DNA of 64,000 bases from a virus (taxonomy: Duplodnaviria > Caudoviricetes): positions 1 through 64,000 of the IMG/VR virus record IMGVR_UViG_3300031519_000013; one strand, given 5' to 3'. Each line of letters opens with the position of its first letter. Position 1 is the stretch's first letter. Below are positions 34,301 through 41,747 of the stretch, one piece after another. A program made the translations under genes and the position numbers. A model generated the notes under the pieces. It ran no database searches, had not been told where the DNA came from, and saw only the letters and a program-made list of their open reading frames with translations.

Positions 34301-34663
34301 TTATCCACGAACGCGAAACTTTTTATATGGAAGGGTGCGGAGTGTTGATAATTCTTCTGCATTAACCCTATACATTGGACCAATAATCTCAGGAAATGTA
34401 TAATTTCTTACCATATTCCAGTGATAATTAAACCCTTTGAATCCCCATCGGGTAATTTCAACGATTTCTACCAGAGGATGTTCATCATATAACAACTCAG
34501 GTGTCTTTGCTTGATATACGAAAGTATAAAATGCACCAACACTATCAGGAGCATACTCTATATCACCAAGAGCCTCCATAATTTTTAGCATCATATCATC
34601 TGGACTCTCAGTACCAACACCTGATCCAATTAATTTTTTTTGTAACTTGGCAAGACGGTTCAT
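34301..34663 (-). CDS. gp2 (DNA end protector)-like protein
   Basis: FYTFVY.AK, YDEHPLV, GFKGFNYHW pattern; synteny with gp4. Confidence 0.55.
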   Translation of the reverse strand: MNRLAKLQKKLIGSGVGTESPDDMMLKIMEALGDIEYAPDSVGAFYTFVYQAKTPELLYDEHPLVEIVEITRWGFKGFNYHWNMVRNYTFPEIIGPMYRVNAEELSTLRTLPYKKFRVRG

Positions 34664-35085
34664 AAACCTAGTTCTTTTTCTGTAATGATCTTAAATTCAT
34701 ACTTACGATCATCACAAAATTCTTGTGCTGCCTTCCATTTTGCTTCATTGACAGCATATGTTTTCATCTCATTAAGATATCTTTTCGACCTCTTCTTGGG
34801 CGGTACAGTCTGTTTAAGCGGTTTAACTTCGATAACGTACCTCTTAATCCCTCCGTTTCTGGTTCTTGTTCTGACATAAAAGTCGGGAAAATAGCGATGA
34901 ACCCTACGATCAAGAGGACTAATGTATGGAATTGCAATTTCTTCACTCCCCCATTCGAGTATATTGCTGTTTCTATCGCACCAATTCATGAATTTTAATT
35001 CCCATAGGGAACGATAAATAATCTTAGTAGGGTCACCTTTATATTTCAAGTAATTACTTGGTTTAAATTTACCCTTATAGTTCAT
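34660..35085 (-). CDS. gp4: Head completion nuclease gp4
   Basis: YRSLWE, WGSEE, HRYFPDF, IEVKP, NEAKW motifs. Confidence 0.9.
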   Translation of the reverse strand: MNYKGKFKPSNYLKYKGDPTKIIYRSLWELKFMNWCDRNSNILEWGSEEIAIPYISPLDRRVHRYFPDFYVRTRTRNGGIKRYVIEVKPLKQTVPPKKRSKRYLNEMKTYAVNEAKWKAAQEFCDDRKYEFKIITEKELGL

Positions 35086-35114: not shown

Positions 35115-35954
35115 ATGTCAGGTGCAGTTCCGTTTAGAAATCTAAGCACAAGTGACTTTCTTAGGCGGTTTGGACACCTTGCGCAAACCAGTCAGTTTCG
35201 TGCTGTGTTACAGGTAGGAGTTCTACCATTCACTAAGAATTTTAATCCTCAGGGTGGTAGGTTCTATGATGATCTTAGTTTCATGTGTAATTCTACATCT
35301 CTTCCTGGTTCTAGTTTCTCAACCACTGAGAACTTGCAGGATTACTATGGCATCAATCAAAAGTTTGCATATCGTAGAGACTTTGATGATCTAACTCTTG
35401 ATTTTTATGTTGATGCGAAGTATCAAACTCTAAAATTCTTTGAAACATGGATGGACTATATTTCTAGCACAGGTGATTCATATTCTGTTCAAACAAATGC
35501 AGGTGCAGAATCTGACTCTGCATTTTATAGATTTAGATATCCAAAAGAAATGGGTGGATATAAGTGTAGGATTGATTTGCACAAGTTTGATAAAGATTAT
35601 GATAGAACCAAAAATGATATGCTTTATAGTTTTGTTAATGCATTTCCACTCAGCATCAGTTCCATTCCAGTCTCATATGATGGAAGCGATTTGTTAAAAT
35701 GTAGTGTCACCTTTACATTCGATAGATATTTTACCAACAGGGGTGGTGCTGCGATTCAATCAGATACTCAGTCTAGTTCTAGTTCTAGTTCTGGAACTAA
35801 TGCTCAAAACCCTAGTGCGTCTGGCCCAACAGATACACAGGCTACTACTGGCAGTGATAGATTTGATCTTGATTTCACTGCACCGTTGCAACCAGGCGAT
35901 AGAGCTACATCTTATAAAGGACCAACGAACGGCAATTTCGAACTTGCTAATTAA
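35115..35954 (+). CDS. Tail-tube-fold baseplate protein (gp54-like)
   Basis: C..TSLPG, LTLDFYVD, FFETWMD, NAFP..I, VTFTF pattern. Confidence 0.65.
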   Translation: MSGAVPFRNLSTSDFLRRFGHLAQTSQFRAVLQVGVLPFTKNFNPQGGRFYDDLSFMCNSTSLPGSSFSTTENLQDYYGINQKFAYRRDFDDLTLDFYVDAKYQTLKFFETWMDYISSTGDSYSVQTNAGAESDSAFYRFRYPKEMGGYKCRIDLHKFDKDYDRTKNDMLYSFVNAFPLSISSIPVSYDGSDLLKCSVTFTFDRYFTNRGGAAIQSDTQSSSSSSSGTNAQNPSASGPTDTQATTGSDRFDLDFTAPLQPGDRATSYKGPTNGNFELAN

Positions 35955-35988: not shown

Positions 35989-36708
35989 ATGCCATTACCA
36001 AAGATTGCGACACCATATTATGATCTTGAACTTCCCTCTTCTGGCGACAGTATTGAATATAGACCTTTCCTTGTAAAAGAAGAAAAACTTCTAGTCTTGG
36101 CTATGGAGAGTCAAGATCAAAAACAGATCACCAAAGCAATCAAAGAAGTTATCAAGTCATGTATTCGTGGAGAGATTAAAGTAGAATCTCTACCCACATT
36201 TGATATCGAATACCTTTTCCTTAACATTCGTGGTAAGTCTGTTGGTGAAGAGATTGAATTAAAAATTATTGCACCAGACGATGGTGTAACAGAGATTGAT
36301 GTCACTATTAATATTGATGACATTAAAGTTATCAAAGATGATGATCACAATAGGGATGTAGATCTTGGAGATGGACTTGCATTGAGATTGAAGTACCCTT
36401 CTCTTGAAGAGTTTATTACAGACAACTTTGACTTTGATGAGAATTCTTCTAATGTTGAGAAAACATTTGATCTGATTGGTTCTTGTATTGAAACCATTTA
36501 CAATGAAGAGGAGGCATGGCCTGCTGCTGATTGTAGCAAGAAAGAGATCAAAGAATTTGTTGATCAACTGAATACCAAACAGTTTCAGGACATTGAGAAG
36601 TTTTTCTCTACCATGCCTAAGTTATCACACACTGTTAAGGTAAAGAATCCTAAGACTAAGAAGTCTAGTGAAGTTTTATTGGAGGGATTATCTAGTTTTT
36701 TCGCGTAG
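35989..36708 (+). CDS. gp26: Baseplate hub assembly protein gp26
   Basis: MPLPKI, YRPFLVKEEK, FDIEYLFLNIRGKSVGE, LEGLSSFF motifs. Confidence 0.9.
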   Translation: MPLPKIATPYYDLELPSSGDSIEYRPFLVKEEKLLVLAMESQDQKQITKAIKEVIKSCIRGEIKVESLPTFDIEYLFLNIRGKSVGEEIELKIIAPDDGVTEIDVTINIDDIKVIKDDDHNRDVDLGDGLALRLKYPSLEEFITDNFDFDENSSNVEKTFDLIGSCIETIYNEEEAWPAADCSKKEIKEFVDQLNTKQFQDIEKFFSTMPKLSHTVKVKNPKTKKSSEVLLEGLSSFFA

Positions 36709-36722
36709 CCCTTTCCCACATG
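36681..36722 (+). other. Candidate -1 programmed ribosomal frameshift site
   Basis: GGAGG (36681-36685), 10 nt, then T TTT TTC (36696-36702); the -1 frame is open into the gp51 ATG at 36720. Confidence 0.6.
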
Positions 36723-36890
36723 AATTTGGAGGCATATTTTAGAATTAATTTTGCCCTCATGCAGCATCATAAATATAGCTTGACAGAGATTGAAAATATG
36801 ATGCCCTGGGAACGGGATGTATACGTTGAACTTTTAAAACAGCATGTTGAAGAGCAAAAGTTAGAGCAAGAGAAACAACGTAATGCTTAG
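36720..36890 (+). CDS. gp51: Baseplate hub assembly chaperone gp51
   Basis: Manual translation: NFALMQHHKYSLTEIENMMPWERDVYVELL. Confidence 0.85.
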   Translation: MNLEAYFRINFALMQHHKYSLTEIENMMPWERDVYVELLKQHVEEQKLEQEKQRNA

Positions 36891-38859
36891 TCTACCACCA
36901 TCAGGAGGAACTGGTAATAAGATTGTCCCCGCCAAACTATTTGGCAAAGATAGATATGACAAAATTTACCAGGAACTTATCTCTGATGGTAGGATAGGAG
37001 GTGAGAATCTATCACCGGATGAAAGAAAAGAAGGTGTAAAAGCATACAGAAGAAGTAAGATAGACTTCGAGAAGTTTGTAACCAAAGTCAATAAAGTTAA
37101 AGTAGAAGTTTCTGCATCAAAATCAGCAACACCACTCACTCCAAAATTAGCATTAGCTCCTGCTAAACAACAAGAGGTTGCACCTCCTCTTGACATGATT
37201 GAGGATGCAGATATTGATGGAATAGATCAGAAGTTAGATGATCTTCTTGATGAGATTCGCACTCAAACTGAGATTGAAGAGAAGCAAGGGGAGAGAGAAC
37301 GAAAGGATAAGGAAAAGGAAAAGAGAAGTAAGAAAGAAAACAAACTTGAATCGGCAAAGAAATTCTTACTGACACCAATCACACGGGCCCTGGCACCTGT
37401 TAATGATCTTTTCAATAAGATTATTAGTGGACTGTTTAAGATTCTTGCTGCAAAAGCACTGATCAAACTGATTGATTGGTTTACAGATCCAGAAAACAAA
37501 GAGAAGATCGATTCAATCGGTAGGTTTATTAAGGATTTCTGGCCTGCTATTGTTGCTGGATTTCTCTTATTTGGAACGGGTCTTGGTGGACTAGCAAAGT
37601 TTATTGTTGGCACAGGTCTTAACCTCTTAGTTGGTATTGCAAAAATGACCGCTAAGTTAGCTGTACTTGCAGGAAAATTAGCACTTAAAGGTGGAGCAGG
37701 TTTGTTAAGACTTGCAGCTGCAAATCCTCTTGCAACAGCAGCTGTTTTAACCACCGCTGCTGTTGCTGGCGGTGCATATATGGCATCACAGCAAAACAAG
37801 AATGAACGCGAAGAACAAAATAAAAAGGATGATAAATCGGTAGTCACTCCAACAGAAACTAAAAACACTGGTCAAACACCTCCTTCATCACAATTACTTG
37901 ACGAACAGATTCGCCAACGTGGGTTGAATATGTTCTCTGGTGGTGGCATGGCACAAGGAACTGATGTTGTTCCTGCCATGTTGACACCGGGTGAATTTAT
38001 TATGAGTAAGGGTGCAGTGCAGAAGTATGGAACTGATACTCTTGAATCGATGAACGCTGCTGGTGGTGGAACAAATATACCTAGAAAGATGGGTGGCACA
38101 ACATACGCTGCTGGTGGTGGTAAGATAGATGTAAAGGGAACTGGAAACTCTGTTGAAGGAACGTTGAAAATGACAGATGCTAGTGGTAAGCAAGTCGGTA
38201 AGACTTATGGTGTCATTAGTGGCACCTATGCTGGCATGAACATACCACAGAATGCCAGATCTACCACTCCACAAGCTCCTATTCCTGATGGTAGTTATAA
38301 ATTAGTTGGATTTGAGAAGCATGGTCCTTATCCTGGACTGGCTGGTATTGGTGATTGGAGTACATATATTGCAAACGGTAGTGGATCTATTGGTAGTCGT
38401 AGTGGATTAATGTTGCATAATGATATTGGAAGTAACGGAACTCTTGGTTGTATTGGTGTTGAACTTGGTGGTAAGGCAGGAACAAAGGCAGAACAGGAGT
38501 TCTTAAAAACATACGAAGCAATCAATCCACAGTCTATTAAGATTGCATTAGGTGGGGGTGGTGGTGATGCTTCTGAGATTGCATCTGTTGATAGAACTGC
38601 ATCACCTGATAACTCATCTAGGTTAGCAGCACTACAACCAGCACAATCAGGAGCTCCTAGGATATCTTCTGGTGCTATCACTCCACCATCTAGGGGTGGT
38701 AGAGCATCACCAGGATCTCAGAGTATCGTTCCCATTCCTACTGGTGGTCAAGGTCCTAAGAAAGGTGCCAGATCAGATGTACCAACTCTTGGTAGCATTG
38801 ATCCATTAAACATTGGACATCTCATAATGAGAGCGATGTATAATCTGGGTGGTGCATGA
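36883..38859 (+). CDS. Tape-measure-like tail protein with an L,D-transpeptidase-like (DUF2778/Tlde1) domain
   Basis: Helical N-terminus, DVVPAMLTPGEF motif, PIPDGSY...RSGLMLHND..GTLGCIGV. Confidence 0.7.
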   Translation: MLSLPPSGGTGNKIVPAKLFGKDRYDKIYQELISDGRIGGENLSPDERKEGVKAYRRSKIDFEKFVTKVNKVKVEVSASKSATPLTPKLALAPAKQQEVAPPLDMIEDADIDGIDQKLDDLLDEIRTQTEIEEKQGERERKDKEKEKRSKKENKLESAKKFLLTPITRALAPVNDLFNKIISGLFKILAAKALIKLIDWFTDPENKEKIDSIGRFIKDFWPAIVAGFLLFGTGLGGLAKFIVGTGLNLLVGIAKMTAKLAVLAGKLALKGGAGLLRLAAANPLATAAVLTTAAVAGGAYMASQQNKNEREEQNKKDDKSVVTPTETKNTGQTPPSSQLLDEQIRQRGLNMFSGGGMAQGTDVVPAMLTPGEFIMSKGAVQKYGTDTLESMNAAGGGTNIPRKMGGTTYAAGGGKIDVKGTGNSVEGTLKMTDASGKQVGKTYGVISGTYAGMNIPQNARSTTPQAPIPDGSYKLVGFEKHGPYPGLAGIGDWSTYIANGSGSIGSRSGLMLHNDIGSNGTLGCIGVELGGKAGTKAEQEFLKTYEAINPQSIKIALGGGGGDASEIASVDRTASPDNSSRLAALQPAQSGAPRISSGAITPPSRGGRASPGSQSIVPIPTGGQGPKKGARSDVPTLGSIDPLNIGHLIMRAMYNLGGA

Positions 38860-41747
38860 TGGTAGGACTTATTGGAGGAGCATTAAACGCTAGCAGAATG
38901 TTGCCTAGTAGAAGTGGGAAGCAGAAAGGTGGTGCTCTGGTTCAATCTAAGCGTCCCAGTCTTAGTCAATTTTATGGTCAGGCAAAACAAAAGGCATCAT
39001 TTGCTGCACCCACATTAGATAGAAGTAGTTTTTTCTCCGCACCAAAAATTGGTGATGTAAAGAAAGGAGCAACAAATGTAGAGAGTGCTGAGAATAAAAT
39101 TAGTCTAATAACTAACTTCATTAGAAAGGGGAATCAGAAGAGGAGAGAATCTTTTAAATCATATCTAAACACAAAACAAGACGAAAAGAGAAAGGAAAAG
39201 GAAGAAAAGAAAGAAAACTTTGCCAAAGGATTGGTAAAAGGAGTTGCATCAAGAGCACTCGCACCAGTTAAGAGTATCTTTGATAGGATTCTCGATGCTG
39301 TTGGTAAGATTGTTATTGCTAAAATTGGCATGTGGGCAATTGATAATCCAAAAGCTTTCACGGCAATTATTAAAGGAATTGATGCTACCTTAACAGTCAT
39401 TACAGATATCTTTATTGGAACTATTGATTTTCTTTCAACAATTATCTTCCATGGATATAAGTTAGTTGATGGATTTAATGACTGGTCAAAAGATAATCTG
39501 GGTGAAGAAGCAACAAATACCTTAACTGATATTGGACCTAAAATTGCTGCTCTTTTGGGTGGTGTTCTGTTGCTTGGAAAAGCAATGGAGGGTCAAGCAT
39601 TATCAGAACTCGGACGTAAAGATCCTGCTTCTAAACCTGGTGGTGGTGGTAAGGAGAGAACTCTCTCTGGTAGGACAAGGAGCACTGCTACTGTTAAACC
39701 TCAGAGATCTCCTGTTCAGCAAACAAGAATAGGGTCACCTGAAAGAAGACTTGCCAGAAATGTTCAAGTAAAACATGGTCATGCAGCAAGAGAGGTTTAT
39801 GAAGAAGCATTTGATGAAGCTCGTGGAAAGGGAAAGAGTGCATTTGAAGCAAATAAAACTGCTAATACAAAAGTTGATAGACTCATAAGAAAGAATCCAC
39901 AAATTTCAAAACCACAACTTGGATCTCTATCTGCGAGAGCAAATAGGATACGAGGTACAGTTGGTGGTCCTGGTGCTAGTAATCTTATTGGGTCTAAGGT
40001 ATTTGGAAAAGGTGTTGATAGAGCAACTCAAAGATTCTTCTTAAAAATAATCGGTAAAGGTGGCGTAACAGCTGTTAAAAAAGTGATGGGTAAGATACCT
40101 ATCATTGGTCCATTACTCGTCTTTGGTCTTAACTGGGCATCTGGTGAATCAATTGCTCGCTCTGCTTCTATGGCAGTTGGTTCTGGATTGGGACAGATGC
40201 TTGGCACTTGGGCTGGTGGTGCTCTTGGTGCTCTTGGTGGACCTCTCGCACCAGTAACAATACCACTTGGTGGTTTTCTAGGAGCAATGTTAGGTGGAAT
40301 TGGTGGAGAATTTTTAGGTGGACTTTTCTATGATGCGATCAGTGGAAAACTGGGTGGTAGTCCGGGTGCGGTTGGTTCAGCCTTAGGTAAGATGGTTGGC
40401 GTATTGTTTACTCAACAAATTCCTGAGATGTTGAAGGGATTTACTGAATGGTTTAGTAGTACAATGAAATCTCTTGGAACGGGATTCTTGAATATTATTA
40501 ATGCATCTGCTGAGTTCTTAGGATTGGACAATCTTGCTGACGTATTTAAAAATACTGTCGGCAAAGCATTTAGTGCCATTGGTAATTTCTTTAAGATGAT
40601 ACAAGAAATTGGATTCCCACCATTAAATCCAATTCAATTTGCTATGTGGGTTGCTGGCAATTTAGGAAAATTAAAGGATGGATTATTCAGTCTCTTCGGA
40701 GGCATGAAAGATTTTGCTGCGATGTTGGTTAATCCAATTGGATTTATTTTCAAGAATGCAATCATGCCATTCTTTAAAAACCTTGGTGAGATGTGGGCAA
40801 ATAGGGATAAATTATTTGATTTCTTAACGAGAGAAAATACTTTCTCAGAAGTAACGGGTACTATATCATCCTTGGGTGAAAGCGCATCATCATCATTAGC
40901 GGCAGGTGCTTCATCGGCAGTAAGTGCAACTACTGGTGCTACGACAACCACGGGAGATCCTGGTGGAGCGGTTTCTGCAACTGTTGCTGGTAGTGAGATG
41001 GATTTATTCAAACGACTTGTTCTTGCAGAATCAGGTGGTGAAGGTGAACTGGGTATGGCATTAGTAGCACGTAGTGTGATGAATCGTGCCGGACTTATTC
41101 AATCTGGTAAGGTTGGTCCTGGAATGTTCATGGCAAATGATAAGAGCATAACTGGTGTTATCATGGGTAGAGGTCAGTATCAACCAGTTTCTGATGGATC
41201 AATTAATACTCAGAGAAGTGATGCACAAATGGCAAAGGCAGCTGCGGCCATTGAACTCGCTAAGAATGTGAATCAATTAAGAACAAAACTTAAAGCTTCT
41301 GGCATGTCAGAAGGTGATATCAATAAACTTATAGCATCGACTGGTTTTAGAACCGGTGCTGCATTTAATGATCCATCTCAAAACGTCAACGTTGTTAAGT
41401 TTAAGAGTCATTACTTTAACACTGCTGGTAATGCAGGACTCAAAGCAACTAGTGCTAGAATAAGCACAGAAGATAATGCACAACAGGCACAGATTCCTAC
41501 CAACCCAACACCATCATCTCCATCAGCTGCTGCTGTCTCGACTCTGAGCAGAGGAAGTGGTGGTAGTGGTGCGGGAGGACCTTCTGGTGGTAGAAGGGCA
41601 CAGGTAGGTGATCAAGCAATCATTCCTGTACCCATACCATCTCAGCAGGGAGCACCCTCTGGTGGTGGTTCTAGTAATGGTGGATCTACTTCGTTAAATA
41701 GTCTTTATATGGCTCAACTGTTTGGGTTCTTATATAAACAAGGATAA
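38856..41747 (+). CDS. Tape-measure-like tail protein with a SleB/Hydrolase_2-like domain
   Basis: Long Gly/Ala helical region; RLVLAESGGEG..GMALVARSVMNR..SITGVI..GQYQP. Confidence 0.72.
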   Translation: MMVGLIGGALNASRMLPSRSGKQKGGALVQSKRPSLSQFYGQAKQKASFAAPTLDRSSFFSAPKIGDVKKGATNVESAENKISLITNFIRKGNQKRRESFKSYLNTKQDEKRKEKEEKKENFAKGLVKGVASRALAPVKSIFDRILDAVGKIVIAKIGMWAIDNPKAFTAIIKGIDATLTVITDIFIGTIDFLSTIIFHGYKLVDGFNDWSKDNLGEEATNTLTDIGPKIAALLGGVLLLGKAMEGQALSELGRKDPASKPGGGGKERTLSGRTRSTATVKPQRSPVQQTRIGSPERRLARNVQVKHGHAAREVYEEAFDEARGKGKSAFEANKTANTKVDRLIRKNPQISKPQLGSLSARANRIRGTVGGPGASNLIGSKVFGKGVDRATQRFFLKIIGKGGVTAVKKVMGKIPIIGPLLVFGLNWASGESIARSASMAVGSGLGQMLGTWAGGALGALGGPLAPVTIPLGGFLGAMLGGIGGEFLGGLFYDAISGKLGGSPGAVGSALGKMVGVLFTQQIPEMLKGFTEWFSSTMKSLGTGFLNIINASAEFLGLDNLADVFKNTVGKAFSAIGNFFKMIQEIGFPPLNPIQFAMWVAGNLGKLKDGLFSLFGGMKDFAAMLVNPIGFIFKNAIMPFFKNLGEMWANRDKLFDFLTRENTFSEVTGTISSLGESASSSLAAGASSAVSATTGATTTTGDPGGAVSATVAGSEMDLFKRLVLAESGGEGELGMALVARSVMNRAGLIQSGKVGPGMFMANDKSITGVIMGRGQYQPVSDGSINTQRSDAQMAKAAAAIELAKNVNQLRTKLKASGMSEGDINKLIASTGFRTGAAFNDPSQNVNVVKFKSHYFNTAGNAGLKATSARISTEDNAQQAQIPTNPTPSSPSAAAVSTLSRGSGGSGAGGPSGGRRAQVGDQAIIPVPIPSQQGAPSGGGSSNGGSTSLNSLYMAQLFGFLYKQG

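Follow-up and report, generated by a model that had tools for sequence, protein, structure and literature searches.

Are a gp26-like gene and the small "gp51" open reading frame (ORF) behind it two genes, or one gene that is decoded in two ways? This question is raised by a locus of a T4-like cyanomyovirus, whose nearest cultured relatives are S-SM2, SynMITS9220M01 and P-SSM2 (60-66% identity of the gp26-like protein). The locus lies on a stretch of 64,000 nucleotides (nt), positions 1-64,000 of the IMG/VR record IMGVR_UViG_3300031519_000013 (Caudoviricetes), which was analysed as a whole and is called the window below. At the 3' end of the gp26-like gene a slippery heptamer, T TTT TTC, is present, and from there on a second frame is open into the small ORF. 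Judged from the sequence and its conservation in related phages, two products are very probably made from this locus by -1 ribosomal slippage on TTTTTTC.

Here, the gp26-like gene and the small ORF would form one expression unit. Most ribosomes would decode the gp26-like frame up to its own stop, resulting in a short form of 239 amino acids (aa). In a minority of the ribosomes, the tRNA-Phe on the UUU codon in the P site and on the UUC codon in the A site of U UUU UUC would slip back by one base, and these ribosomes would then read CGC GUA GCC and onward in the -1 frame to 36890. The product of this second decoding would be a long form of 300 aa, which combines the shared PF12322 domain with a helical tail of 62 residues.

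The junction and the conservation of its heptamer

The full-length gp26-like ORF matches PF12322 (T4_baseplate) with an E-value of 2.5e-72 and 243.5 bits (cut-off 24.5) as well as phrog_150 ("baseplate hub") with an E-value of 4e-79 over profile positions 5-232 of 282. Its 3' end reads AGT TTT TTC GCG TAG, with one sense codon between the heptamer and the stop. From the heptamer the -1 frame reads TTT TTT CGC GTA GCC CTT TCC CAC ATG into the 56-aa ORF and is open over 36696-36890. This small ORF matches phrog_634 ("baseplate hub assembly catalyst") with an E-value of 5.4e-26, and it also covers positions 242-280 of phrog_150, the same profile whose positions 5-232 are filled by the gp26-like ORF. 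The overlap of the two frames is just 13 nt long (36696-36708), which is essentially the heptamer, and it is bracketed by a stop codon of the -1 frame on one side and by the 0-frame stop on the other side. On the + strand, no terminator or promoter was found between the gp26-like ORF and the 56-aa ORF.

For the long form, the predicted junction is ...EGLSSFF/RVALSHMNLEAYFR (the slash marks the change of frame), or in a longer view ...LEGLSSFF/RVALSHMNLE..., and the predicted tryptic peptide across this junction is SSEVLLEGLSSFFR. The short form would end with ...SSEVLLEGLSSFFA. What the initial annotation had stated about the end of gp26, the heptamer, the spacing of an upstream GGAGG motif, the reading of the -1 frame and a fusion of 300 aa was reproduced in all these points. 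The features are listed in Table 1. As an observation aside, the C-terminal tail has its own Pfam accession, PF28602.1, among precomputed protein-database hits.

Table 1. Features of the gp26-like locus and of its direct neighbours in the window.
Feature	Position	Strand	Basis
gp26-like baseplate hub assembly protein, short form, 239 aa	35989..36708	+	standard decoding; PF12322, phrog_150
Slippery heptamer T TTT TTC (X XXY YYZ), in phase with the gp26 frame, proposed -1 shift site	36696-36702	+	sequence and conservation
Shine-Dalgarno (SD)-like GGAGG, 10-nt spacer to the heptamer, possible stimulator	36681-36685	+	sequence
-1-frame TAG abutting the heptamer, 5' limit of the region in which the shift can occur	36693-36695	+	sequence
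0-frame TAG ending the short form	36706..36708	+	sequence
-1-frame extension, 62 codons and stop, gp51-like tail	36702..36890	+	phrog_634, phrog_150
56-aa ORF as conventionally called	36720..36890 (ATG 36720, stop 36888-36890)	+	phrog_634
Predicted long form coding region, 300 aa (238 in frame 0 and 62 in frame -1)	35989..36890	+	colinear with single-ORF T4 gp51
Tail-tube-fold protein, immediately upstream	35115..35954	+	PF23849 Phage_TTP_2, E 3.9e-13; phrog_45 "tail tube", E 3.5e-39
658-aa and 963-aa ORFs, large and rich in Gly/Ala, directly downstream	36883..41747	+	tape-measure-like by position, size and composition

Within the window, slippery sites of this kind are rare. Among its 57 putative genes just two in-frame T TTT TTY sites are present, and T TTT TTC is used for 2 of the 35 Phe-Phe pairs encoded by these genes. 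Therefore, codon habit does not explain the T run at the end of the gp26-like gene. The second in-frame T TTT TTC is located at 39029-39035, in codon 58 of the downstream 963-aa ORF; there, the -1 frame stops after six codons, and the site is probably background.

The conservation of the arrangement was studied on loci from several sources, which were 55 IMG/VR loci found via the window protein, annotated GenBank regions, a further 83 IMG/VR loci found via the gp26 of phiM7, Yut3 and ValKK3, and 76 metagenome loci. The gp51-like domain was located with a hidden Markov model in any forward frame, so that no heptamer was presupposed. Counted were those loci in which gp26 is complete, namely 136 from the window, IMG/VR and GenBank as well as 59 from metagenomes, which results in 195 one-gene loci. 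The set of 136 loci falls into 22 single-linkage clusters at an identity of at least 50% and into 9 clusters at an identity of at least 40%. Furthermore, more than 600 deposited phage genomes were matched with this type of gp26 using tblastn.

In all 195 one-gene loci, T TTT TTN is present in phase and the gp51-like domain is encoded by the -1 frame. The initial annotation had named Phe-Phe residues with non-slippery codons, or a stop in the -1 frame, as signs that would speak against recoding; neither occurs in any of the 195 loci. Non-slippery codons for the Phe-Phe pair were seen solely where the long form has a gene of its own, in T4 and its relatives.

The conservation is seen down to single bases. 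In all 38 distinct cyanophage junctions the heptamer is identical, T TTT TTC, with zero entropy at each of its seven positions, and in the same junctions all 20 third-codon positions upstream of it vary (mean 1.35 bits). The codon directly 5' of the heptamer is AGT, AAT, GAT, TCT, GCT, ACT, GGT or CAT. These eight codons encode seven different residues (Ser, Asn, Asp, Ala, Thr, Gly and His) and always end with T, at a background of 36% for T in the third position. At position 7 of the heptamer, C or A is found in those loci whose -1 frame opens with Arg, encoded by CGN or AGR. In the clade with AGR, the 0-frame residue is changed to Leu (TTA), yet the run of six T and the Phe-Phe-Arg of the -1 frame are retained. 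The position of the heptamer is constant, and the 0-frame stop follows 0 to 9 codons past it in the relatives.

Two genes in T4 and probably one gene in its relatives

Phage T4 itself represents a natural control. Here, genes 26 and 51 are located on opposite strands (minus and plus, respectively), and therefore no frameshift can join them. T4 gp51 (249 aa) contains PF12322 over residues 1-201 (E-value 3.9e-52) and a tail which matches phrog_634, whereas in T4 gp26 (208 aa) PF12322 only is present. When the sequences were aligned together, the long forms predicted for the window, S-RIM8, phiM7, Astolliot, OC, Yut3, RHph_I1_18 and ValKK3 were all colinear with T4 gp51 across the junction, which is the point where T4 gp26 ends (...GLKEFFELL). 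This shows that the fused architecture is a natural protein. On sequence level, T4 gp26 is the counterpart of the short form and T4 gp51 that of the long form, both encoded by two paralogous genes.

The gp26-gp51 fusion proposed by the initial annotation is thereby backed as an architecture, but not as the sole functional product, since the short and the long form would both be products. The name gp51 has to be shifted as well, since the homology of T4 gp51 extends over the whole long form and is not limited to the small ORF.

A one-piece ORF for gp51 is present in about 1,375 T-even and pseudo-T-even records. The 3' end of gene 26 was sampled in eight phages of the two-gene type and the slippery codons are absent in all eight. 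In T4, Moon, PMBT63 and KIT01 the Phe-Phe pair is kept and is encoded by TTC TTT after A or G, and in DP45, Whisky, Acj9 and Aeromonas phage B614 the Phe-Phe pair is lost from the end of gene 26. Members of the Straboviridae with the heptamer and the -1 arrangement are Cronobacter phage LPCS28 and the KVP40-like phage ValKK3. Across the sampled phages, the slippery run is found exactly where the predicted decoding needs it.

Among the hub assembly chaperones listed for T4 are gp26 and gp51, the latter of which is not part of the particle (PMC3004832). In the literature on T4, gp51 figures as an essential protein of hub assembly with unknown function, and the role of gp26 as contradictory (Leiman et al., 2010, PMC3004832). 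In the GenBank record of Acinetobacter phage Octan, gp51 is labelled "tape measure protein assembly chaperone".

The frameshift in the tail assembly chaperone genes of long-tailed phages has been described as conserved "except T4" (Atkins et al., 2016, PMC5009743). The locus of the window appears to be a family-level instance of this known tail-chaperone frameshift, and in the full-text literature that is accessible without subscription no mention of such a slip in the gp26/gp51 of T4-like phages was found. A wider reading would be that the -1 frameshift is a general and probably ancestral route of the T4 superfamily to a tape-measure chaperone pair of the G/GT type, of which the T-even genes 26 and 51 would be a later duplication; for and against this, the scales are evenly balanced in our view. 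It covers cyanophages, KVP40-like and phiM12-like phages, phages of Stenotrophomonas, Pseudomonas and Cronobacter as well as many uncultured marine phages. If true, the exception of T4 from the rule for long-tailed phages (PMC5009743) would be removed and gp51 would gain a defined role. To see gp26 and gp51 as the short and the long form of one chaperone would point to a concrete and testable function, and in most T4-like phages this chaperone would come from one gene by frameshifting.

Probable ribosomal slippage and its alternatives

The motif U_UU.U_UU.C belongs to the class H_HH.U_UU.Y, which was found to be one of the -1 motif classes that work most efficiently in E. coli and which is used in insertion sequence elements (Sharma et al., 2014, PMC4066793). 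For the window, the slip efficiency would probably amount to a few per cent, in keeping with the catalytic role that gp51 has been given. Upstream of the heptamer, at a distance of about 10 nt, a GAGG, GGAG or AGGA core is found in 60 of the 84 distinct junctions, and the Glu codon at this SD-like element is GAG in 51 and GAA in 12 cases, at a GAG background of 40%. At that spacing, conservation of the SD-like element does not extend to Yut3, Astolliot, ValKK3 and phiM7. Of the conservation expected by the initial annotation, the heptamer and the open -1 frame were therefore recovered, whereas the SD spacing is not conserved outside of cyanophage-like clades. The GGAGG of the window, which had been put forward in favour of a shift, also contributes little, since this motif occurs 56 times on the + strand of the window. 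A hairpin of the window was considered as downstream stimulator and rejected; it begins 16 nt past the heptamer and is not conserved.

Several points weigh against ribosomal frameshifting at this site. The ATG at 36720 is present in the window, and an independent initiation of a free 56-aa peptide would be possible there. The efficiency of the heptamer was determined in E. coli and not in cyanobacteria, and the trans-frame protein is a prediction from the sequence signal. The upstream GAGG is missing in 24 of the 84 junctions as well as in distant clades, and no conserved downstream RNA structure was found by RNAfold and alifold in the 38 distinct cyanophage junctions, where the consensus is empty and the mean z lies at -0.7 to -0.9. 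Furthermore, the counted loci are phylogenetically related, so that the counts overstate their independence.

Taking up the first of these points, one might assume that no recoding takes place at all. The 56-aa ORF would then be translated from the ATG at 36720, by independent initiation or by termination-reinitiation, and the T run would be conserved only through the need of the protein for Phe-Phe. An ATG is close to the stop in many relatives, and the Vibrio phages D531 and GR28A, in which no heptamer is present, clearly start the gp51-like ORF at an ATG that overlaps the stop (TAATG). All GenBank records examined annotate the small ORF as a separate gene; none of them joins the two ORFs and the long product is never annotated. 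Starts without an SD sequence are normal in this genome, and since an SD-like motif is present in 15 of the 57 window genes, the SD-less start of the small ORF adds little to the case for recoding, for which it had been brought forward. Nevertheless, we regard a locus without recoding as very improbable. The six codons that separate the heptamer from the ATG vary in the manner of a -1-frame coding sequence in the 38 cyanophage junctions, with His in 38/38 at a varying wobble base, Arg in 35/38 and Met alternating with Leu. Moreover, several lineages lack an ATG for the small ORF: five distinct cyanophage junctions (L023/25/26, L053 and S-RIM8) contain none within the first 14 codons of the -1 frame, and none is found near the junction in Astolliot and in Ochrobactrum phage OC. 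A need for Phe-Phe also does not account for the third-position T that is kept in front of the heptamer across seven different amino acids, for the clade with Leu in the 0 frame, or for T-even gene 26, which holds the same two residues with the non-slippery TTC TTT. Finally, it is evident from T4 gp51 that a gp26-type domain is where the tail belongs.

In the annotation, the small ORF is listed separately and is sometimes truncated to an internal ATG or missed. In S-RIM8 (L056, 2262) the small ORF of the GenBank record begins at an internal Met and is truncated, because no ATG is present at the junction. In Vibrio phage D531 (L062, 2085 onward) the gp51-like ORF is not annotated in GenBank and a different small ORF is called instead.

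The same two proteins would also arise by a different mechanism, if the RNA polymerase added an extra U on the run of six T. Such a transcriptional slippage is consistent with a site that is a homopolymer of six to seven T and with the lack of a detected downstream RNA stimulator for ribosomal shifting, and an extra U would yield the same SFF-R junction as in rare in-frame ORFs from metagenomes. However, known bacterial sites of transcriptional slippage usually need runs of about 8-9 bases, and most of the runs here are capped at six by the C or A which opens the Arg codon of the -1 frame. In addition, the T run is always found in X XXY YYZ phase with a preceding T and never as V TTT TTT. This constant phase fits a tandem re-pairing of the tRNAs, and the motif is an efficient ribosomal shifter, so that transcriptional slippage is judged to be improbable.

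The in-frame ORFs also touch the question whether one gene was split by a sequencing error or by a recent frameshift mutation in the homopolymer. They are singleton metagenome proteins of about 300 aa (P0004-P0008, P0027, P0028, P0032 and P0036), in which both domains are in one frame. Their junction reads SFF-R, and in P0028 it reads GQAF-R without the Phe-Phe pair. These proteins could be real hard-wired fusions or the result of homopolymer errors from six to seven T; a metagenome scan with P0032 recovered frameshifted relatives only, plus one truncated identical contig. Homopolymers are error-prone, which is also seen for the Stenotrophomonas phage locus L147, the sole exception to the conserved arrangement. 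Here, five T are present versus six in its 99% identical sister L146, so that gp26 is shifted to the +1 frame; an assembly error of the deposited isolate genome is the probable reason. Against such an artefact or a decay stands that the same two-frame arrangement is present in 40 of the 40 best-matching cultured cyanophage genomes and in all one-gene loci counted above, which were obtained by many projects and platforms, and that among the 150 best-scoring family representatives most of the full-length members end at the Phe-Phe position. An origin of the two frames by error or decay is thus hardly conceivable, and ribosomal slippage on the heptamer remains the preferred explanation.

Fold, gene order and a putative chaperone role

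If the short and the long form are both made, their function has to be asked for. The structure was modelled for the long form of the in-frame relative P0008 (301 aa, 68% identical to the gp26 of the window) with an alignment of 98 rows, and the model reached a predicted local distance difference test score (pLDDT) of 91.4 and a predicted template modelling score (pTM) of 0.80. The top three matches of VIA-align among 48,161 chains are the tail assembly chaperone (TAC) of HK97 (2ob9, Z 7.1, root-mean-square deviation (rmsd) 3.7, 85 residues aligned), 3fgx (Z 7.0) and YqbN of a B. subtilis prophage (3klu, Z 6.7). The latter two we take to be proteins of the phage tail-chaperone type. Each of these matches comprises about 85 residues within residues 1-91 of the model, at a Z of about 7, which is below the caution level of 8 of this tool. 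The next matches, with a Z of about 5, are generic helical matches to the C-terminal tail. In the model, the N-terminal region of about 90 residues thus has a fold that most resembles phage tail assembly chaperones, which is suggestive.

The gene order points in the same direction. A gene for a protein with tail-tube fold precedes the gp26-like gene, which is followed by the two large tape-measure-like ORFs. The latter match tape measure phrogs weakly (E-value 5.8e-4), and their role as tape measures would fit to their place, size and composition. In a chaperone pair of this kind, the shared N-terminal, chaperone-like part would handle the tape-measure or hub protein that is encoded next, and the C-terminal tail would give the long form an extra contact.

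On the other side, Foldseek against the PDB returned nothing significant for the model, with 2ob9 as the only row of low rmsd (probability 0.57, E-value 1.6), and no link to solved TACs was found on sequence level by phmmer and profile searches. Likewise, no similarity of the downstream 658-aa and 963-aa ORFs to T4 gp29 was detected. For the role as lambda G/GT-like chaperones, which had been assigned to gp26 and gp51 at the outset, the balance leans slightly towards a pair that would act on the tape-measure or hub protein in the manner of G/GT. This proposal draws on the gene order, the moderate fold match (Z about 7) and the T4 genetics from the literature.

With gpG and gpGT of phage lambda, the locus of the window has in common that two products with a common N-terminus would be made, by a -1 shift on an X XXY YYZ site near the end of the short ORF, a likeness which is here one of sequence signal. 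Furthermore, the gene is flanked by a tube-type gene on one side and by large tape-measure-like genes on the other, its products would be expected to serve in assembly and not to be part of the virion, and the modelled N-terminal part of the family is closest to solved TACs. In contrast to lambda, the shared part here is a PF12322 region of about 240 aa, which is about twice the typical size of a TAC and has no sequence similarity to it. The heptamer of lambda is G GGA AAG, whereas U UUU UUC is used here, the 0-frame stop follows within one codon, and no downstream structure was found. T4 gp26/gp51 belong to the same family as the pair of the window (PF12322, phrog_150 and phrog_634) and are colinear with it through the junction, but are encoded by separate, divergently transcribed paralogues with TTC TTT instead of one gene with a frameshift. 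The dnaX gene of E. coli resembles the window in its homopolymeric heptamer and in the SD-like element about 10 nt upstream. In dnaX, a strong downstream hairpin is present and the shift yields the shorter of the two proteins; in the locus studied here, the SD-like element is not universal, no conserved hairpin was found and the shift would yield the longer one.

Some further observations concern the neighbouring genes. The ATG of the 658-aa ORF lies within the last codons of the -1-frame extension (36883-36890, ...CGT AAT GCT TAG), with an overlap of 8 nt, and the translation of this ORF could be coupled to ribosomes which finish the long form or the small ORF. The 963-aa ORF (38856-41747), which overlaps the 658-aa ORF by 4 nt (ATGA), contains at residues 728-801 a region similar to cell-wall hydrolases of the SleB/CwlJ type (PF07486, E-value 1.5e-5, just under the cut-off). 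This region also matches phrog_2588 and endolysin phrogs, and the 963-aa ORF may be the tail-associated lysin of this lineage. Upstream of the tube-type gene, a gp4-like head completion protein is encoded on the - strand (34660-35085), which matches the N-terminal domain of TnsA-like endonucleases (PF08722, E-value 1.7e-23). A TnsA-like endonuclease domain is likewise noted for the gp4-like protein in the record of the Ochrobactrum phage.

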